A DNA stretch of 63,998 bases, filler included, from an uncultured Methanosarcinales archaeon (lineage in GTDB: Archaea > Nanobdellota > Nanobdellia > Woesearchaeales > CAYSVS01), in NCBI GenBank assembly GCA_964434475.1. It is 5 parts of 5 records of this genome, joined end to end, with 100 filler letters (N's around TTAATTAATTAA, not from the genome) between each part and the next. Parts side by side here need not be neighbours in the genome. Positions count along the whole stretch, not along the records: positions 47,023 to 62,002 come from CAYSVS010000029.1; 4 more parts are not named here. One strand, 5' to 3'. The translations under genes were made by a program, and so were the position numbers. Shown here one piece after another: positions 8,227 to 63,998 of this stretch (its first letter is position 1; every line of letters starts with the position of its first letter). The notes beneath the pieces are model-generated. The model saw only the letters and a list, made by a program, of their open reading frames with translations. It ran no database searches and had not been told where the DNA came from.

Positions 8227-10677
8227 ATGTCTGAAATTATATTTAGTCCCGTATATGTCAATTATAAGATAGTGAATGAAAAGCCAAGAGTTTATCTTTT
8301 TGGAAGGACAGATGATGATATGCAGATAGCTATAGTTGATGACAGTTTTAAGCCATATTTTACTGCTGTTCTTAATGATGACAATGATCTTGAGGAATTT
8401 CAGGAAAAAGTAAAGAAGATAAAGCTTGAAGAGGAGAATGCTTTTGTCATAGATACAGAATTAGTGGACAAGAAATTAGTTGGAAAAGATGTAAAGGCTG
8501 TTAAGATATACTGTAACATGCCTAAATCTGTGCCATCGATAAAAAAAACAATAAAAGAATGGCCTGTTATAAGGAACCTATATGAATATGACCTAAGATT
8601 CGTAAGAAGATATCTGATAGATAATGATATTACTCCTTTAACTAAGCTAAAGGTTGATTGTGAAGAGATAAAGGATAGATTAAAAGTACCTGTGTTTAAA
8701 GCAAAAAGCATTGAAAAAGTAAGCAATGATTCTCCTGAACTTAAAGTAATGGCATTAGATATAGAAACATACAATCCTTCGGGAAAAGAGATTGTTCCAG
8801 AAAAAAATCCTATACTTATGGTAGGATTAAGCGGCAATGGTAATTTCAAAAAAGTTATTACATGGAAAAAGTTTGATACAAAGCTAAAATATGTAGATTT
8901 TGTTAATAATGAAGCAGAATTGCTGTTCAAACTAAGGGATTATATAAATGAGTTTAAGCCAGACATATTGACAGGCTATTATTCTGATGGATTTGATCTT
9001 CCGTATATAATATCCAGAGCAAAACAATTAGGTATTGATTTTGAAGTTGGTCTTGATAACAGCAAACCTAAACAGCAAAAAGGAAGATTTGGTTCTATTG
9101 ATATATTCGGTATAGCGCATATAGATATTTTAAATTTTATCAGGATAATTGTAGGAAGAACATTAAAGACAGACAGTTATAAATTAAATAATGTTGCTGA
9201 AGAATTATTGGGAGAAAGAAAGGATGATGTTGATGTTGAGAATTTAGCAAATGTATGGGATAATGATCCTCAAAGATTAGAAGAATTTTGCAGGTATAAT
9301 CTTCAGGATGCTGTATTGACATATAATCTTTTTTTCAGGTTATTGCCTAATATGGAGGAGATGGTCAAGTTGATTGGTTTGAGTATCTTTGATCTGACAA
9401 GGATGAGCTTTAGCCAATTAGATGAATGGTATATAATTAAGATGTGTCATCAGTATAATGAGATGATACTTAACAAACCAGGTTATCATCAAACAAACGA
9501 AAGGATGACTAGAAGGTTTAAAGGAGCTTTTGTTTTTCAACCAAGTCCTGGATTCTATAAAGATATTGCTGTATTTGATTTCAGAAGCTTATATCCTAGT
9601 ATAATAGTAAGCCACAATATTGGCTTGAGCAGTTTAAATTGTGATTGTGAAGAATGTAAAAAAGAACTTGTTCCTTTAGAAGGGCATAAATTATGGTTCT
9701 GCAAGAACAAGAAAGGGTTTATTCCAAGTATATTAGAGAATCTTATAACAAGAAGGGCGAGAGTAAAGGAAATATTGAAAAAAGACAAGAATAATGTTTT
9801 GCTACAGGCAAGATCAGAAGCATTAAAAGTTTTGGCTAACGCATTCTATGGATATTTAGGATTTTATTCTGCAAGATGGTATTGCTATGATTGCGGTAAC
9901 AGTGTAACAGCTTATGGAAGATATTACATCAACAAAGTTATAAAATCTGCTGAAGAAAATGGTTTTAAAGTTCTTTACGGCGATACAGATAGTATATTTT
10001 TGAGCCTTAAAGGTAAAGATGAAGATGAAGCAATAAATTTTGTAGATAGCATAAATACAGACTTGCCTGGAATGATGGAGCTTGATTACGAAGGATTTTT
10101 TCCTACAGGTATCTTTGTAAGCGCAAAAGCAACAGAAAAAGGAGCAAAGAAAAGATATGCAATGCTTAACAGAGATGGGACATTGAAGATTAGAGGATTT
10201 GAGACAGTAAGAAGGAATGTTAGTTTTATAGCAAAAGAAGTGCAGGAAAATGTGCTTAATATTATTCTTAAGGAACAGGATAATGATAAAGCATTTCAGT
10301 ATGTTAAGCAAGTGATAAAAGATTTGAGAAATAAGACAATAGAAGTTGATAAAGTGGTCATTAGAACTCAATTGACAAAGCCGATCAAAGATTATGGTTC
10401 AATAGGACCTCATGTTTCTGCTGCTATGAGAATGCAAAATAGAGGAGACCATGTTGGACCTGGAAGTATAATCAGATACGTAGTTGGTTCTGGAAAGGGT
10501 GTTATAAGAGATAGGGTTAAATTACCTGATGAGATTATAGACAATGATTATGATTCTGAATATTACATAAACAATCAGATAATTCCTGTTGTTGAGAAAA
10601 TATTTGAGGTTTTTGGCATAACAAAAGATGAATTGCTTCAGGATAAGAAGCAGAGTAAGTTGGGAAGTTTTTTTTAA
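8227..10677 (+). CDS. polB: Family B DNA polymerase (archaeal PolB3-like)
   Basis: Exo LDIET, GFD, YNLQD; pol DFRSLYPS, KVLANAFYG, YGDTDS; C-terminal PIP QSKLGSFF. Confidence 0.97.
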   Translation: MSEIIFSPVYVNYKIVNEKPRVYLFGRTDDDMQIAIVDDSFKPYFTAVLNDDNDLEEFQEKVKKIKLEEENAFVIDTELVDKKLVGKDVKAVKIYCNMPKSVPSIKKTIKEWPVIRNLYEYDLRFVRRYLIDNDITPLTKLKVDCEEIKDRLKVPVFKAKSIEKVSNDSPELKVMALDIETYNPSGKEIVPEKNPILMVGLSGNGNFKKVITWKKFDTKLKYVDFVNNEAELLFKLRDYINEFKPDILTGYYSDGFDLPYIISRAKQLGIDFEVGLDNSKPKQQKGRFGSIDIFGIAHIDILNFIRIIVGRTLKTDSYKLNNVAEELLGERKDDVDVENLANVWDNDPQRLEEFCRYNLQDAVLTYNLFFRLLPNMEEMVKLIGLSIFDLTRMSFSQLDEWYIIKMCHQYNEMILNKPGYHQTNERMTRRFKGAFVFQPSPGFYKDIAVFDFRSLYPSIIVSHNIGLSSLNCDCEECKKELVPLEGHKLWFCKNKKGFIPSILENLITRRARVKEILKKDKNNVLLQARSEALKVLANAFYGYLGFYSARWYCYDCGNSVTAYGRYYINKVIKSAEENGFKVLYGDTDSIFLSLKGKDEDEAINFVDSINTDLPGMMELDYEGFFPTGIFVSAKATEKGAKKRYAMLNRDGTLKIRGFETVRRNVSFIAKEVQENVLNIILKEQDNDKAFQYVKQVIKDLRNKTIEVDKVVIRTQLTKPIKDYGSIGPHVSAAMRMQNRGDHVGPGSIIRYVVGSGKGVIRDRVKLPDEIIDNDYDSEYYINNQIIPVVEKIFEVFGITKDELLQDKKQSKLGSFF

Positions 10678-15944: not shown

Positions 15945-16044
15945 NNNNNNNNNNNNNNNNNNNNNNNNNNNNNNNNNNNNNNNNNNNNTTAATTAATTAA
16001 NNNNNNNNNNNNNNNNNNNNNNNNNNNNNNNNNNNNNNNNNNNN
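15945..16044. other. Artificial contig linker
   Basis: N44-TTAATTAATTAA-N44. Confidence 0.98.
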
Positions 16045-31540: not shown

Positions 31541-31640
31541 NNNNNNNNNNNNNNNNNNNNNNNNNNNNNNNNNNNNNNNNNNNNTTAATTAATTAANNNN
31601 NNNNNNNNNNNNNNNNNNNNNNNNNNNNNNNNNNNNNNNN
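31541..31640. other. Artificial contig linker
   Basis: N44-TTAATTAATTAA-N44. Confidence 0.98.
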
Positions 31641-46482: not shown

Positions 46483-46872
46483 CTAACCTGTAAAATGTAT
46501 TTCGTTCATTATTATCTCTGCAGTTTTATAATATTTCATTTTCCAATCCTTGTATTCTCTTCCTTCATAAAAATCCATTGCTTCTCCTATTCGGAACAAT
46601 ACATGAGCTAAATCAGTAGTATTAACAAAAACACAATCATCCAATATTTTCTCATACATATCCATAGCATGTTCAAGATAAAAAAAAGAATCATTATCTG
46701 TATATTTATCAGTCAATCTTGCCTGCAAAAGATAAGAGTCTGCTAACAGCACATGAATCTTGGTAGAATATGAATCATACAATCTCGGTTCTTTTTCATC
46801 ATCGCTTAGCCTATTCTTAAATCGAGTGAATAATTCAAAAGCGTTTACAAGATAATCCTGCGATCTAATATA
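46483..46872 (-). pseudogene. 3' half of an IS-interrupted gene (5' half at 61510-61951)
   Basis: Frame stays open upstream of the listed TTG start up to the IS junction (YIRSQDYLVNAFELF...). Confidence 0.75.
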
Positions 46873-46922
46873 GGGAACTTTGCAAAATTAGCAAAAACGT
46901 AAACTCTATATATCTACTTGAT
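46873..46922. mobile_element. IS5-like terminus (GGGAACTTTGCAAAATT end) after TATA target
   Basis: Reverse complement of 47025-47074. Confidence 0.75.
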
Positions 46923-47022
46923 NNNNNNNNNNNNNNNNNNNNNNNNNNNNNNNNNNNNNNNNNNNNTTAATTAATTAANNNNNNNNNNNNNNNNNNNNNN
47001 NNNNNNNNNNNNNNNNNNNNNN
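46923..47022. other. Artificial contig linker
   Basis: N44-TTAATTAATTAA-N44. Confidence 0.98.
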
Positions 47023-47074: not shown

Positions 47075-47142
47075 TTTGCTGTCTTCAGATTATCCAGATC
47101 ATTTTTATAATCCATATGATAAAGTATTTGCTCAAGTTCCAT
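47075..47142 (-). pseudogene. 5' fragment of a tandem paralog of 47144-47464, cut by the IS
   Basis: MELEQILYHMDYKNDLDNLKTA versus MNLEKILYHMDFTNDLNNLKEV. Confidence 0.8.
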
Positions 47143-47143
47143 C

Positions 47144-47464
47144 TTAATCAATCTTTCTGCAATTTTTATTCTTTAATAAGTATATCGTGCTTTTTACTGT
47201 ATATTGAAAGATATCCATAAACAACCCTACTTCTGCTCCACTGTATGCAAATTCATTTATCTCCTGTTCAATATCTATTCCTAAACAATTTCCTGTTAAA
47301 TATGCTGCTCCTGCTATAAAATAACCTGCAGTTCCTCCTCTTAATATAGATTTAACTGTATTTCTTACCCCTGTTTGTCTGTATTCATGATAGTTTTTAA
47401 CTTCTTTAAGGTTATTTAGGTCGTTAGTAAAATCCATGTGATAAAGTATTTTTTCTAGGTTCAT
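47144..47464 (-). CDS. Small protein with Gly/Ala-rich hydrophobic segments
   Basis: ILRGGTAGYFIAGAAYLTG and AYSGAEVGLFMDIF; starts 1 nt after the upstream stop. Confidence 0.75.
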   Translation of the reverse strand: MNLEKILYHMDFTNDLNNLKEVKNYHEYRQTGVRNTVKSILRGGTAGYFIAGAAYLTGNCLGIDIEQEINEFAYSGAEVGLFMDIFQYTVKSTIYLLKNKNCRKID

Positions 47465-47465
47465 C

Positions 47466-50400
47466 TTATACTCCTTCTAGTCTGCACCATTGTCTTAATC
47501 TGTTAAGTTCGCTATCTTTTAGGTTATAAAAAGCTTGTCTTTGCTCTTTCGCTATAACATTCAAGAGATATCCTGTTCTTGTGTTTAGCCTTTTCCTGTA
47601 TTCATTGAATTCATGCATCACATCTTCAGTATCGTATACTTTTATCTTTACAGGTACTTCTTTCTTTTTTCTTCCTATCTTGACTTTTTTCATTTCCTCA
47701 ACAAAATAATGTCCTTCTTCATCTATTTTTATATCTTTCTTTCCTATTATGTCTTTTGGATCATAGTATGTCAAGCAATTTTTTTTCTTAGGGTCTTTTC
47801 TTGTTAGATAAGCTTTTCTTTTTAAGCTTGTTTTTGATTTCCAAACAAAATCTTCTGGATCATAGCTTTTGTTTGCTATATTAAGTATTCTGTAAGCTTC
47901 TTGGATAGCTTTTTTGTAGTTTCCTTCAAGAGCGTTTGTTAGTACTTTGTCATACATTTTCATCTCTGTCCTGTTAAAATGCCAGTCAGCATCATCCTTT
48001 ACCTTTGCTCCTTGATAGAATCCTAATTGTTTGTAGTATATATTGTGTCCAGAATCTTTTTTGCTTACTATTGCATCGTCTATTGTGTCTATGTGTATAA
48101 ATTTTGCCTTGTCCAAAGCTTTTTTATTGCCTCCTACCAAGTATAGATATTTATTTTGGATATGTATGACTTCAAAACCATTTGCTTCAATAAATCTTCT
48201 TACTTTTTCAATTTTATATTTTAGTTCATCTTCAAAATGTTCTGGCGAGATTGTGTATATCTTAGAAAAGTTAATTATTCCTTTTTCCAGTTTTTCTATT
48301 TTTTTTGTAGATTTTTGTTGTGATTCTCTTATGTCTGTTTCAACATCGCAAAGATTTTTAAACTGTTTGAATGTTCTTCTATTTGTCTTAAACAAATTTT
48401 CAAGCCTTTGTTTTGTAAATAAGTCGCAATACTCGTAATATTTTTCAGGTTTAAGCGTTTTTTTCTTAAGATGGAATAACCCCCATGTGTATTTGTTACT
48501 TTCTTCTGTTTCCATCCTTGAACTGTCTTCTTTTAATTTTTCGACTAGGTTGTTATATATTGTCTTTGTAAAATGATGGTCTTTAAATTCAAGTTCCTCA
48601 AGCAGTTTCAATTTTTTCTTTTCCAGTTTCTTTAATTGTTTGTCTGGATCTTTTCCTTGTTTTTTTATGTGTCTTCTGTATAACAACATATAATTGATAA
48701 TCATTTCATCTATCAAACCTTCAGAAAATTGTGAAAGGAAAAATTGTCTTCTTTTATCTTTTATGTTTCCATCTTTATCTATCTTGCTGTATTTGTAGTC
48801 AAAGAATTTTTTTCCTTCTGGAAATCTTCTATATATCTCTTCTCTGAAAAAGTCTCCTATAGGAAGATATACTTTGTATACTTCCTTATATCTGCCTTCT
48901 TTTGACTTAAATCCGCTTATTTTTCTGAAGAAATTCTTGAACTTCTCCTTTTCAGCGCTTCCTTTTTCTATTACTTCTCTGTATTGAATCTTGTATGTTC
49001 CAAGTTCATTGAAGAATTTTCTGTCAGATGCATCAACTATGCATTTCTTAGTATGGAATATCTTTGTTAGTGGAACTTTGTAATCGTTTGCAATCTTTAC
49101 AGCATCTCTTATTGAATTTTTTATCTCTTCTGTAAAAAATAATTGCGGCATCAGATCCACATCTTTTCTGAGATATTTTGCGATTATCTCTCCTGATTTC
49201 AAATTGCCTTCTGCAAACTCCTTGTCTAGACACGCCATCTCTCCATAAGATATGTCTTTTTGAACTTTTTCTTCAAGCAATGTTCCAGATGTCATCACCA
49301 ATTTTCGGTTTACCTTATCGCATAGCGCAATCTTTGCCCAATTATAGAAATCTATGACTTGTTTTCCTCTTATCCCCATCCTTTCAAAGAACTTGTTTGT
49401 GGCTTCAAATATTGGTTCAGTATTTCTTTCTCCTACAGCAAAATCTCCTGCTTCCCTTAATTTTGGTAAGTCGAATCTTGCATTGTATGCTGAATAGAAC
49501 AAAGGATTTTCTTTGAGTATATTTTCCTTAAGACCTTTAACTAAATCTTTTTCAGACTTATGAAGGATTATCTTATAGCCTTCTGTTTCTTTTAGTTTAT
49601 GCTTGTGTATCGTATGTATCTCTTTTTTGTATACTTTTCCCTTTTCTACATAGCTTATTCCTACCCAACTTATTTCTGGTTTATCTGATTTGAATTGGGG
49701 TATTTCGATGTCAAAAAAGCACCATTTTGCATTGATTATCTCATCCGCATCCATATACTTTTTCCACCTAAAATATTTTCTTGGAGAATCTAGATTAACA
49801 GCAAACTGCTTTTGGTCTTTATTGTATTTTATCTCGTTGTCTCCTAATAACTTTATTTTGGAATTTAATTTTGTAATAAGTTCATCTATGCTTTCTTGTT
49901 TTTTTAGAACTTTTTCAGGCAATAGCATGCCTATCTTCGTTTTTTTGAACTTTTGTCTTTGGTCTTCTGTTTTTATACCATAAAGCCTGTTGATAGTTCT
50001 TGTTATTGTCGCTTGTTTGTTATCTTTTCCATATTTGTTTATCTTTTCATTTATTTTTCTTACATCTTTGTTTGTTTTCTTTACTTTTTTTAATATGTTT
50101 TCAAGTCTATCTTCTATCAAAATCTTTTGTCCTGGAATCCCAAAACTCCATCTTGCTTGGCTTACGTTCTTGTCTGTTATTATCTTGCCTTTTTTTTTGT
50201 TTTCTTTCAACAGTTCAGCAATATAGTTTTTTTTGTTTATGTTGCCTATTACTTGTGTTATGTTCCAATGAGGGATTTTTTTGACAGATTTCATCTTGCA
50301 ATCTTGCAGATTGGGGTCTGTGCTTATTAGATCTTTCAGATGATTTTTTTCCTTTTCATCCATTTTTTTGCTTGGAAAAATATAGTCTTTCCAATCGCAA

Positions 50401-50498
50401 TATACTGTACCAAGATCAAAGAACGTAAACATAACTTTTTCATTGTGTTTCTTTCTATCTATTCCTACTTCTGTTACAATATGCTCTAGTGCTCCCAT
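47466..50498 (-). CDS. Divergent PolB-derived protein: intact 3'-5' exonuclease motifs, polymerase motifs lost
   Basis: FFDIE, AYNARFDLP, YLRKD; degenerate palm segments GRYKEVYKVYLP and NGFEVIHIQNKYLYL. Confidence 0.75.
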   Translation of the reverse strand: MGALEHIVTEVGIDRKKHNEKVMFTFFDLGTVYCDWKDYIFPSKKMDEKEKNHLKDLISTDPNLQDCKMKSVKKIPHWNITQVIGNINKKNYIAELLKENKKKGKIITDKNVSQARWSFGIPGQKILIEDRLENILKKVKKTNKDVRKINEKINKYGKDNKQATITRTINRLYGIKTEDQRQKFKKTKIGMLLPEKVLKKQESIDELITKLNSKIKLLGDNEIKYNKDQKQFAVNLDSPRKYFRWKKYMDADEIINAKWCFFDIEIPQFKSDKPEISWVGISYVEKGKVYKKEIHTIHKHKLKETEGYKIILHKSEKDLVKGLKENILKENPLFYSAYNARFDLPKLREAGDFAVGERNTEPIFEATNKFFERMGIRGKQVIDFYNWAKIALCDKVNRKLVMTSGTLLEEKVQKDISYGEMACLDKEFAEGNLKSGEIIAKYLRKDVDLMPQLFFTEEIKNSIRDAVKIANDYKVPLTKIFHTKKCIVDASDRKFFNELGTYKIQYREVIEKGSAEKEKFKNFFRKISGFKSKEGRYKEVYKVYLPIGDFFREEIYRRFPEGKKFFDYKYSKIDKDGNIKDKRRQFFLSQFSEGLIDEMIINYMLLYRRHIKKQGKDPDKQLKKLEKKKLKLLEELEFKDHHFTKTIYNNLVEKLKEDSSRMETEESNKYTWGLFHLKKKTLKPEKYYEYCDLFTKQRLENLFKTNRRTFKQFKNLCDVETDIRESQQKSTKKIEKLEKGIINFSKIYTISPEHFEDELKYKIEKVRRFIEANGFEVIHIQNKYLYLVGGNKKALDKAKFIHIDTIDDAIVSKKDSGHNIYYKQLGFYQGAKVKDDADWHFNRTEMKMYDKVLTNALEGNYKKAIQEAYRILNIANKSYDPEDFVWKSKTSLKRKAYLTRKDPKKKNCLTYYDPKDIIGKKDIKIDEEGHYFVEEMKKVKIGRKKKEVPVKIKVYDTEDVMHEFNEYRKRLNTRTGYLLNVIAKEQRQAFYNLKDSELNRLRQWCRLEGV

Positions 50499-50597
50499 GT
50501 TTCTGCTAGTAGAATAAATCTTATAAAGCTTATGTATGGTTGATTATAGATGATATAACAAAAACTTTTTATATAATCCTTCTTTTCTATTATATAT

Positions 50598-50918
50598 ATG
50601 GCAAATTATAAGAATTTGAGACAGCCTGATTATTCTGCAAGGTTTGTTTTTTTTGACAACAAGATACCAAAAACATTGATCATATCTGATTGGGATACGA
50701 AAAAACAGATGAATGATGTCTTGTTCAAATGCTATGTTATTAAAGAAGATGATAAGGAAGTTGATAAGCTTTTGACAGCGTTTGATTTTGATTTTGCAGA
50801 GCAGTTGAAGAAGGTTGTAAAGGGCAAGAAGTCGCATCAGAAGATAAAGATCAAGGTTTTGATGACTGAGATTGATGATTTTGAGAAAGAGTATGAAGTT
50901 AAAGAGATTAAAGAATAA
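50598..50918 (+). CDS. Hypothetical beta-rich protein
   Basis: 106-aa ORF divergent from the PolB-like gene. Confidence 0.7.
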   Translation: MANYKNLRQPDYSARFVFFDNKIPKTLIISDWDTKKQMNDVLFKCYVIKEDDKEVDKLLTAFDFDFAEQLKKVVKGKKSHQKIKIKVLMTEIDDFEKEYEVKEIKE

Positions 50919-50983: not shown

Positions 50984-51412
50984 CTATTGCATCAAAGCAA
51001 GTTCAATTCCTCTTGCTGTAGAGAATAAGTTGATGTCTTTTTTATTTTTCTCAAGAAGATTAGCATCCCATACTGCTCCTATAATTGGATCTTTTGTGAT
51101 ACGTTCATCTTCGTGGTATCTTATAGAATGCAGTATTTTTCTGGAATTATATTCAGGAAAATGTTTTTCCAATATCTCTTCAGCTATTAACGCAGCTTTT
51201 ATAGCGTGTTGATTGTTTTCTTTCAAAATATTATTATCTGGCACTATGTCTTGTAGATATGCTGCCAAAAGAACATCACATGTGTTATTTGGACACTCTT
51301 CTTTTGCAATCAGCATTGCAAAGTTGACAATCTTTTTCGTATGCTCAACACCTTCTTTGTTTAGCATCGGAAAAACGATGTTTTCCACTTTTGTGAAATT
51401 GAATTTTTCCAT
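50984..51412 (-). CDS. HD-fold protein with degenerate motif (LQD)
   Basis: GVEHT, LLAAYLQD, HA, IRYH, VWDAN. Confidence 0.7.
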   Translation of the reverse strand: MEKFNFTKVENIVFPMLNKEGVEHTKKIVNFAMLIAKEECPNNTCDVLLAAYLQDIVPDNNILKENNQHAIKAALIAEEILEKHFPEYNSRKILHSIRYHEDERITKDPIIGAVWDANLLEKNKKDINLFSTARGIELALMQ

Positions 51413-62002: not shown

Positions 62003-62102
62003 NNNNNNNNNNNNNNNNNNNNNNNNNNNNNNNNNNNNNNNNNNNNTTAATTAATTAANNNNNNNNNNNNNNNNNNNNNNNNNNNNNNNNNNNNNNNNNN
62101 NN
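62003..62102. other. Artificial contig linker
   Basis: N44-TTAATTAATTAA-N44. Confidence 0.98.
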
Positions 62103-62155: not shown

Positions 62156-63998
62156 TCTTAAGTTTGACACGTTTTTGAGTTAAATATTTTATAATCAGAC
62201 ATATAAAATTTCGCAGGCACACTACAAAATCTATATAACTAATTGATATTAAATATATTGAGATTTTGCATCTCTAGGGAAGATATTAGGAAGCGTTTTA
62301 AGCCCTAAACGTTTTTGTAGGATAACTTCTTTTTCGCTTTGAGCTGACCTTAGAAGGAACTCTTTTCCATCATGTTCTATTAAGCTTAGTTGCATTTTGT
62401 CAAGAGCCTTACGAAGATTAGTTTCAGTAAATTCATTACTGTTTTTATTGAGCTTTAATAGCGTATTGTTTAAAAGAGTGTATGCAATGTAACACATACA
62501 AATATGACCATCTATTCTTTTGTCTGTCCAGTGAAACATTGGTCTGGTATCCAAGTGCGATTTAAAGGTTCTGAAAGTGTGTTCAATTTTATATAACTGC
62601 TTATATTGATCCAGCACCTCAGTTATTGACAGCTCTGTATTGTTGGTTGCAATTGCCAAAAAGCCATCATATTTTTCATCTTCTGCAATTTTTTCTTCAT
62701 TTAAAACATATACTTCGTTTGATTGCTTTTTAAGAAAATAGCGGGCTGCTTTTTTATTTATGTTTGCCGGATTGGCTAATAATTTATGGGCTTTGATAAG
62801 TTTCTTTTCACGTTGGTAACGATCTTTTCTGGCTCTTTTTTGCGAAAATGTACCGATAATTATCCTGTTTTTGTATTCAAAGGTGCAATATTTTACCAAT
62901 ACTTCTTTTCCTAAACTGTCAGTATACTTCCATTCTTGTTGATAGTTTGCATGATCAATAAGATATAATTTGACCGACTTAGGCAGTGAGCGTAATCGTT
63001 CGCCAACAATAAACTCAAAACCATAATCAACTACCACTTTTAAGTTATCCGTTGATAACATACCACGATCAGCCACTACAATAACTTTATCAATCTGGAA
63101 CTCTTTACGTAAATCCTCCATGGCATGAACAAATGTATGCCCTTCAAAAGCTCCTCCACGAAAGATTCTATAACCGATGGGTTGCTTATTGCGGTCTATT
63201 AGCATACAAAACAATACCTGGGTCTTTCCAATTTTCCCATCCTTACTAAAACCAGTTTCCCGATAACTTCCTTCAATTTCTACTTCACTATCAAAATACA
63301 AAGTAGTTACATCGTAAAATACTACATCTAATTTCTGGTTAAATAGATTCCTTCCGGTTTGATAAATCTGCTTTTGTATTAACCCATTGTAATCCGCCAA
63401 CTTATCTAATGTGCGATAAAGGTGCTGAAGCTCAACGTGATCAATATTGATATATTCTTCCTGGTTATAATAAGAACATAACTTACTGCAAGGGTCATGA
63501 AGTCGATCAATTAGCATCAATAAAAGTGTATTTTGCAGATCAAAACTCAGATGATGCTTTTGCTGGATGTTCTTACAGACATAATCAAGACTATAATTTT
63601 TGAAGGTTTTCTCAAAAACTTGGAAATAACCATAATTATAACGTGCTTTTTCACAAGTACTTATACCTAAAAGATCTTTTAAATTACCTCCTCCCAGTTC
63701 ATAAAGTTTTGAACCAATACGCCTTAATTGTTCAGGGGTGTAATCTTCAACCTTCCCCAATGAGTAAAGAATCCGTTGTTTGCTTCTGCCTGAATCATCG
63801 CGATAACTTTCGACAATCCGCAAATATTTTCCTGACTTTTTATTTTCTACTCGTAAAAATGCCATAACACAAAATTATGACAGAAATATTTAAAAATCAA
63901 AAAGTTGGCACACTACAGATTTTGAGATTTTTGGAAAATATTCCCTGATTTTACTGGGATACAGCGATTCAATATGATTAGAAGTGTCAAACTCAAGA
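62156..63998 (-). mobile_element. IS1634-family insertion sequence
   Basis: Terminal inverted repeats TCTTAAGTTTGACAC (62156-62170) and GTGTCAAACTCAAGA (63984-63998), 14/15 match. Confidence 0.88.
62249..63865 (-). CDS. IS1634-family DDE transposase
   Basis: YLRIVESYR, FYDVTTLYF, GFSKD, VADRGM, YDGF, IEHTFR.FKS.L..RPMFH. Confidence 0.93.
   Translation of the reverse strand: MAFLRVENKKSGKYLRIVESYRDDSGRSKQRILYSLGKVEDYTPEQLRRIGSKLYELGGGNLKDLLGISTCEKARYNYGYFQVFEKTFKNYSLDYVCKNIQQKHHLSFDLQNTLLLMLIDRLHDPCSKLCSYYNQEEYINIDHVELQHLYRTLDKLADYNGLIQKQIYQTGRNLFNQKLDVVFYDVTTLYFDSEVEIEGSYRETGFSKDGKIGKTQVLFCMLIDRNKQPIGYRIFRGGAFEGHTFVHAMEDLRKEFQIDKVIVVADRGMLSTDNLKVVVDYGFEFIVGERLRSLPKSVKLYLIDHANYQQEWKYTDSLGKEVLVKYCTFEYKNRIIIGTFSQKRARKDRYQREKKLIKAHKLLANPANINKKAARYFLKKQSNEVYVLNEEKIAEDEKYDGFLAIATNNTELSITEVLDQYKQLYKIEHTFRTFKSHLDTRPMFHWTDKRIDGHICMCYIAYTLLNNTLLKLNKNSNEFTETNLRKALDKMQLSLIEHDGKEFLLRSAQSEKEVILQKRLGLKTLPNIFPRDAKSQYI

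Follow-up and report, generated by a model that had tools for sequence, protein, structure and literature searches.

A family B DNA polymerase relative with a conserved exonuclease site and without polymerase motifs in a woesearchaeal genome

What might a DNA polymerase be kept for once its polymerase site has gone? The question is raised by a gene for a protein of 1010 amino acids (aa), called as an open reading frame (ORF) at positions 47466-50498 (minus strand) of a 63,998-base stretch of DNA, hereafter the window, from an uncultured archaeon of the Woesearchaeales (GenBank assembly GCA_964434475.1). An earlier note on this DNA, made from the sequence alone, had proposed that the protein is a relative of family B DNA polymerases (PolB) with an intact exonuclease and a dead polymerase site, that it heads an operon of small hydrophobic proteins, and that it serves in defence or host interaction or is a relic of an integrated element. 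Our analyses of fold, active sites, relatives, and gene neighbourhoods indicate that the gene probably encodes a derived family B DNA polymerase turned stand-alone 3'-5' exonuclease—i.e. a protein that is no longer a polymerase—a reading based on residue conservation and on a predicted structure.

Fold and homology of the 1010-aa protein

A word-based search with the 1010-aa protein retrieves four relatives with 27-30% identity. A profile of these five sequences recovers at least 209 cluster representatives at E ≤ 0.001 (108 at E ≤ 1e-30), many of them full length, and family members are ~16-31% identical to the 1010-aa protein. Alignment A2 holds 93 full-length members, and all residue counts per column given below are taken from it.

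Kinship with PolB is apparent from the predicted structure. Given the 93-sequence alignment, AlphaFold models the 1010-aa protein with a predicted local distance difference test score (pLDDT) of 92.4 and a predicted template modelling score of 0.89, compared with a pLDDT of only 43.9 when five sequences are supplied. The best Foldseek match of the model is E. coli Pol II (3k59; E = 9.7e-18), and only family B polymerases occur among the matches listed. Similarly, VIA-align yields a Z score of 23.7 to 6p1h and 7omg (yeast Pol delta and KOD polymerase), with 617-669 residues aligned at a root-mean-square deviation of 5.9-7.2 between model residues 1-990 and whole chains; in the case of KOD, residues 1-747 are covered by model residues 7-981. 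The model presents an N-terminal domain, exonuclease, palm, fingers, and thumb in the canonical order, which is the domain architecture of canonical archaeal PolB (KOD, Tgo, Pfu, and D. Tok), yeast Pol delta, and E. coli Pol II. Specifically, the AlphaFold and Foldseek check that the earlier note had called for was run, and the C-terminal half is predicted to fold as palm, fingers, and thumb. Large helical inserts are found in the model at residues ~87-220 and, in the fingers, at ~582-750, along with a beta-rich part in the thumb.

Profile comparisons lead to the same family. When A2 is aligned by hhalign with a group of 28 canonical PolBs of Woesearchaeota, the probability is 95.5% (E = 1.4e-8) over 508 columns. 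Searched against the PDB, the A2 profile matches Thermococcales PolB chains in the exonuclease region (best 1qqc, E = 3.9e-12), and the exonuclease domain is, by profile score, closest to Thermococcales-type PolB. A six-frame search of the genome also detects the Pfam exonuclease family PF03104 within the gene (positions 2310-2702 of its contig, C29; E = 8.2e-6, 24.8 bits against a cut-off of 23), a match that is not listed in an hmmscan of the whole 1010-aa protein. Together with the fold, these profiles bear out the description of the protein as a PolB relative.

Searches that start from the single protein return very little. For example, Pfam and NCBIfam give nothing real for the whole 1010-aa protein, phmmer against the PDB finds no match, and BLASTP against the canonical PolB encoded in the window (8227-10677) is not significant (best E = 0.2). 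The polymerase domain PF00136 has no match in the 1010-aa protein, its sole match in the genome being on contig C26, and the five-sequence profile retrieves coiled-coil noise only from the PDB. Because single-sequence searches are uninformative, the kinship with PolB rests on profiles and fold. A protein language-model look-up of the 1010-aa protein returns PolB clusters only, with a score of 0.96.

The nearest cluster in that look-up is a mostly bacterial (Chloroflexota) group of 746 aa, in which 79% of the members carry PF03104 and 24% carry PF00136. This is a hint that bacteria, too, may have PolB relatives with a similarly degenerate polymerase.

Exonuclease and polymerase sites

The predicted DEDDy 3'-5' exonuclease domain, supported by the PF03104 match, the column counts, and the profile match, spans residues ~245-470 (49089-49766, minus strand). 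In the profile-profile alignment, its FDIE, YNARFD, and YLRKD segments fall on Exo I, II, and III of the canonical group. Specifically, hhalign pairs D263 and E265 with D178 and E180 of the canonical PolB (Exo I), N339 and D343 with S253 and D257 (Exo II), and Y442 and D446 with Y357 and D361 (Exo III). Four of these residues, D263, E265, Y442, and D446, are invariant in all 93 members, while 86 members retain N339 and 90 retain D343. The family thus has the features of a DnaQ-like DEDDy exonuclease, with DxE in Exo I, NxxxD in Exo II, and YxxxD in Exo III in addition to the PF03104 match. The proofreading carboxylates that the earlier note had read as intact in one protein are, as such, conserved family-wide.

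The polymerase site has fared differently. The remnant of motif A (residues 535-551; 48846-48896, minus strand) carries Tyr544 at the catalytic Asp position, paired by hhalign with D451 of the canonical PolB. This column holds Tyr in 56 and Phe in 16 of the 93 members, with no Asp among the residues listed, and in the model a strand formed by residues 535-544 ends at Y544. At motif C (residues 774-789; 48132-48179, minus strand), Q781-N782-K783 stands in place of the DTD turn, with Q781 and K783 paired with D586 and D588. Both of these columns are variable—i.e. 28 Glu, 17 Gln, and 15 Lys at 781, and 19 Asp, 14 Asn, and 14 Pro at 783—and the model places the turn Q781-K783 in a beta hairpin made of residues 775-781 and 784-789. 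The secondary structure of the model agrees with the hhalign mapping of both motifs, and hhalign reproduces the pairs of segments on which the earlier note had based its claim that the polymerase motifs are erased at matching positions (GRYKEVYKVYLPIGDFF with GFYKDIAVFDFRSLYPS and ANGFEVIHIQNKYLYL with ENGFKVLYGDTDSIFL).

The remaining polymerase elements are also missing. The region aligned with motif B has no counterpart of its Lys and Asn, and the 1010-aa protein contains no KxxxNSxYG motif, as had been noted before. Nor does it have a counterpart of the KKRY-type segment (KKxY in the canonical alignment). Across 153 family proteins, fragments included, none presents the patterns of motif A (DxxSLYPS), motif B (KxxxNSxYG), or motif C (YxDTDS). 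Structural columns of the C-terminal half are conserved all the same, including G535 (87 of 93), V540, P546, and Y786, and this half is therefore maintained and not decaying.

Compared with canonical PolB, then, the 1010-aa protein has the same DEDDy motifs at aligned positions, and canonical PolBs of Thermococcales are its best sequence-profile matches; it differs in having neither the motif A and C aspartates, motif B, the KKRY-type segment, nor PF00136, and in its extra helical inserts.

This pattern can be compared with PolB paralogs known to have altered active sites through the passages covered of the papers cited below. Archaeal PolB2 and the bacterial G2 group resemble the present family: they, too, are PolB paralogs, patchily distributed and altered in their catalytic motifs, with repair as the presumed role, and they are treated as "inactivated" in the literature (Rogozin 2008; Makarova 2014; Kazlauskas 2020). 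According to Kazlauskas 2020 (PMC7544198), PolB2 and G2 lack Exo III and show no conservation of Exo I. Makarova 2014 (PMC4104785) regards both domains of PolB2 as inactivated and describes its linkage to an inactive RadA and a small helical protein; PolB2 is nonetheless reported to act as a translesion polymerase (PMC12926913). Our family shows the reverse, with the exonuclease invariant and the polymerase gone; both Exo I and Exo III, degenerate or missing in PolB2 according to these passages, are invariant throughout, and the statement of the earlier note that the pattern differs from PolB2 holds. The neighbourhoods may differ as well. The small protein of PolB2 operons (~90 aa, helical, of no known family; PMC4104785) has its nearest parallel here in a small gene that is not conserved, and no RadA-sized or RadA-like neighbour was seen at the locus of the 1010-aa gene, the PolB2 operon being one with arCOG07300 and an inactivated RadA.

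The C-terminal inactive module of eukaryotic Pol epsilon offers a second likeness, as it kept the PolB fold after losing polymerase chemistry. According to the passages covered, however, that module lost both sites and is fused behind an active PolB, whereas the 1010-aa protein is a stand-alone single module in which the exonuclease site is intact. The closest analogy in evolutionary logic is found outside family B: a 2026 survey of bacterial polymerases (PMC12926913) describes prokaryotic PolX with a dead polymerase site and a conserved PHP 3'-5' exonuclease, but its fold is unrelated and its nuclease is PHP and not DnaQ-like. Among PolB paralogs with altered sites, the same sources give a degenerate or inactivated exonuclease for PolB2, Pol alpha, and Pol zeta, and the loss of both sites for the C-terminal half of Pol epsilon.

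No PolB group with the exonuclease kept and the polymerase lost occurs in the covered passages of Kazlauskas 2020 (PMC7544198), Makarova 2014 (PMC4104785), or PMC12926913, and a full-text literature search retrieved no description of an exonuclease-only PolB family, although supplements, which lay outside these searches, could hold such a group. Within this scope, the family appears to be so far undescribed.

Distribution, neighbourhoods, and small genes

The window is made of concatenated, size-ordered contigs of a 1.50-Mb assembly (148 contigs, 33% GC, 96.95% complete, 0.85% contamination). These are C26 (1-15944), C27 (16045-31540), C28 (31641-46922), C29 (47023-62002), and C125 (62103-63998), joined by artificial N44-TTAATTAATTAA-N44 linkers at four places (15945-16044, 31541-31640, 46923-47022, and 62003-62102). 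As the pieces are separate contigs, no gene neighbourhoods can be read across the linkers, and DNA left of 47023 is no true neighbour of the 1010-aa gene, which lies near the start of C29. The canonical PolB, whose close relatives carry the source name Candidatus Woesearchaeota, is on C26—i.e. in the same assembly and on a different contig. The genome also has PolD DP2 and PCNA beside this one canonical PolB, so that the 1010-aa gene is an extra and does not stand in for a missing polymerase.

Across the phylum, a family match at E ≤ 1e-5 is present in 40 of 301 genomes (39 of 300 without genome G242, which is flagged as unpublished), 38 of which belong to the same order. The match is below 1e-20 in 31 genomes, and nine are weaker (E = 1e-17 to 1e-6), two of which, in G188 and G239, were inspected. 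We compared 27 related loci (L005-L012, L014-L024, and L026-L033), among which L006/L018 and L009/L014 represent the same places twice and L020 comes from G242. The genes beside the relatives vary from locus to locus and, judged from their translations, are housekeeping genes. No family member was found among the viral contigs, phage records, and plasmid records searched. Housekeeping neighbours and the lack of matches in these viral, phage, and plasmid sequences both argue against a defence system and against a relic of an integrated element, the two roles that the earlier note had entertained. A comparison with the same-genus genome G084 gave no usable insertion or deletion boundary, as the aminotransferase query had no match and AlaX matched at only 27% within a 597-aa frame.

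Many members of the family carry what may be a sliding-clamp signal at the C-terminus. The motif QLxLxL, QxxLF, or one like the PCNA-interacting peptide (PIP) ends 36 of the 93 members, compared with 65 of 4650 internal control windows, and such tails are scattered over all major clades. The QLxLxL and QxxLF tails resemble the bacterial beta-clamp-binding consensus more closely than they do the PIP box of 8 residues (QSKLGxFF) at the end of the canonical PolB in these archaea. A PCNA gene adjoins the family gene in 2 of the 27 loci; in L026 (G155:C2, 4803-9619) and L030 (G261:C12, 270-5507), the family gene lies between a PCNA gene and an RNase J-like gene, two genes that are adjacent in the window's own genome (L025). 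A complex prediction with the genome's own PCNA and residues 940-1010 of the 1010-aa protein scored 0.00, a non-answer that counts neither for nor against binding.

Two further loci, L032 (2963-9278) and L033 (183-6255), hold members distant from the clade of the 1010-aa protein (E = 2e-6 and 4e-7 to profile A1), each head to head with a divergent protein of 853 or 940 aa that has a Cys-rich C-terminus with a CDRCFYDHQ.IC motif. The 1010-aa gene has no neighbour of this type at its locus, and PF12705 has no match in its genome.

Downstream of the 1010-aa gene, a 106-aa Gly/Ala-rich orphan protein is encoded at 47144-47464 (minus strand), starting one base after the stop of the large gene. It is followed by the start of a second tandem paralog (47076-47142, minus strand; ATG at 47142) that is truncated after ~22 codons, and both junctions read TAA-G-ATG, as the earlier note had stated. 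A direct repeat of 63 nucleotides with 76% identity links the two paralogs. Over the first 23 codons of the second, 16 residues are shared with the first, and the codons differ by 10 synonymous and 7 non-synonymous changes, an excess that suggests a real peptide. The 106-aa gene and its duplicate are probably co-transcribed with the large gene in this genome; no public RNA run is listed for the stretch, which is contained in one DNA run (X1).

The second paralog runs into the terminus of a high-copy repeat resembling an insertion sequence (IS) at the contig end (47023-47075). The same terminus of ~52 nucleotides is found at 21 contig ends on 20 contigs, with flanks diverging right after ...GTTCCCT, and it recurs in the window at 46872-46922. 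Run X1 is public and may come from the source sample of this DNA; in it, the contig of the repeat has a depth of 292 compared with 9.7 for the flanking unique contig, or ~30 times more. The repeat accounts for much of the fragmentation of the assembly, and the view that an IS cut the second paralog is a reasonable one given these termini and depths, even though the body of the element is not linked to the terminus. The remainder of the second paralog is found nowhere else in the assembly, and the contigs of X1 contain no uninterrupted copy.

Contig C125 (1.9 kb) is filled by a gene for a 538-aa DDE transposase (62249-63865, minus strand; PF01609, E = 6.3e-9), considered as a candidate for the interrupting element; it has just a 20-nucleotide, 90% match to the repeat terminus and may belong to a different IS. 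A separate ORF at the end of C28 (46483-46872, minus strand) reads into the same terminus, so that a second gene is apparently truncated by a copy of the element; this ORF has no family match beyond a chance-level one in NCBIfam.

In a collection of 5.8 billion proteins, the 106-aa protein finds no match but itself. It has no match in Pfam, NCBIfam, or PADLOC, and its best Atlas score is 0.77, with recognition below the mark. While its Gly/Ala-rich composition is as described earlier, its hydrophobicity is only mild; the highest 19-residue Kyte-Doolittle hydropathy is 1.06, and a membrane role is therefore not indicated. Similarly, a divergently oriented ORF of 106 aa at 50598-50918 (plus strand) has no family match in Pfam, NCBIfam, or PADLOC and finds only itself in its own genome. 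With tblastn, neither of these two proteins is detected in any of the 27 related loci. The earlier note had named small genes unlinked to the large gene in other genomes as a refutation, and this is what these loci show; its operon with membrane effectors is accordingly not supported. As judged from these sequence comparisons, the 106-aa gene and the copy of it cut by the IS are additions specific to this lineage and not conserved partners, and the divergent ORF has no support as a partner either.

Beyond the divergent ORF, a 142-aa protein (50984-51412, minus strand) matches the HD domain at a borderline level, with 20.3 bits where the cut-off is 22 (E = 6.8e-4). Genes resembling HD-domain ones are also convergent to the family gene at L006/L018.

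Proposed function and its alternatives

How would an exonuclease built on a dead polymerase work? The palm, fingers, and thumb, though dead, may continue to hold a primer-template or the end of a DNA and direct the 3' end into the exonuclease site. In this way the protein would trim 3' ends that are mismatched, damaged, or unwanted without extending them, as an accessory repair or replication factor that acts alongside the normal PolB and PolD of the genome. Many relatives would probably ride on the sliding clamp, a feature that the tail of the 1010-aa protein does not share. In its full form—i.e. a whole PolB converted into a dedicated 3'-end trimmer acting in trans, with the dead domains as a primer-template clamp and a clamp tail for recruitment in many lineages—this proposal is offered tentatively, at somewhat short of even chances.

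Several observations weigh against this reading. Support for activity comes from the conservation of catalytic residues, which is indirect, and pairwise similarity to PolB becomes significant only with profiles. Glu occupies the first motif C position in about one-third of the members and Asp the second in about one-fifth, and judging by these residues, some members may retain residual metal binding. The 1010-aa protein itself ends in ELNRLRQWCRLEGV, with no Qxx[LIM]xx[FY][FY], QLxLxL, or QxxLF motif, and adjacency to PCNA is rare (2 of 27 loci) and absent at its gene. Lastly, the family is not found in 261 of the 301 genomes, one of them a 99%-complete genome from the same genus, and this patchy distribution means that its function is dispensable.

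The exonuclease residues could, alternatively, be kept for binding and not for cutting, the protein then being a non-catalytic scaffold that only gives structure or binds DNA within an assembly for replication or repair. This would fit a full PolB fold that outlived polymerase chemistry, the clamp-type tails of many relatives, and the PCNA gene beside two of them, and it has a precedent in Pol epsilon, whose inactive module is essential in yeast according to PMC7544198, in the passages covered. We consider it unlikely, however, because four residues invariant in 93 of 93 members, with two more kept in 86 and 90, at below 30% identity form the pattern of an active site, and because the same residues are lost in the inactive half of Pol epsilon and in PolB2, as far as the covered passages describe them.

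That the large protein senses DNA ends or acts as a nuclease in defence or host interaction, with the small hydrophobic paralogs as membrane effectors, would be suggested by the tight junction and tandem duplication of the small gene, by the excess of synonymous differences that speaks for a real peptide, and by the patchy, accessory distribution of the family. Yet the small genes are absent from the 27 related loci and from the protein collection, the hydropathy maximum of the 106-aa protein is low, and the neighbours of the relatives are housekeeping genes that differ between genomes. Further, PADLOC-DB 2.0 gives no family for five proteins of the locus at E ≤ 0.01, and such a system is in our view very unlikely.

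Could the protein still polymerize by means of non-canonical residues, as argued for PolB2 and for primer-independent PolBs that have no aspartate at one position of motif C? PolBs without the first motif C Asp can indeed polymerize (Kazlauskas 2020, PMC7544198, in the passages covered), and the motif C turn carries Glu or Asp in some members of our family. In the 1010-aa protein, by contrast, all three catalytic positions are occupied by Tyr, Gln, and Lys, the motif A column holds Tyr or Phe, Asp being absent from the residues listed, and neither motif B nor the KKRY-type segment has a counterpart. In the C-terminal half, the acidic columns with good conservation (602, 845, and 963) fall in helices of the model, outside the strands of motifs A and C. 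Retained polymerase activity by this route is highly improbable.

Finally, that the gene is the decaying relic of a mobile element or virus polymerase, as the IS-like repeat 390 bases downstream and the absence from the same-genus genome might suggest, is scarcely credible for an intact frame of 1010 codons whose GC content is the same as that of the flanks, with full-length homologs that are ~16-31% identical and invariant in the active-site residues, and with no relatives in viral contigs or in phage or plasmid records.

Reading the 1010-aa protein as an exonuclease derived from a polymerase has a direct consequence for annotation, as such genes should not be named DNA polymerases. If the protein is active, proofreading-type chemistry would be separable from synthesis with the polymerase scaffold retained whole, and the family would provide a natural "exonuclease-only" polymerase body in which to study how PolB transfers DNA between its two sites. 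It would also add one more component to the replication and repair toolkit of DPANN archaea. If the proposal is true, the family would represent a third, undescribed route of PolB paralog specialization, the mirror of that taken by PolB2, Pol alpha, and Pol zeta, and DPANN archaea would possess a separate proofreading or end-cleaning enzyme beside PolB and PolD.

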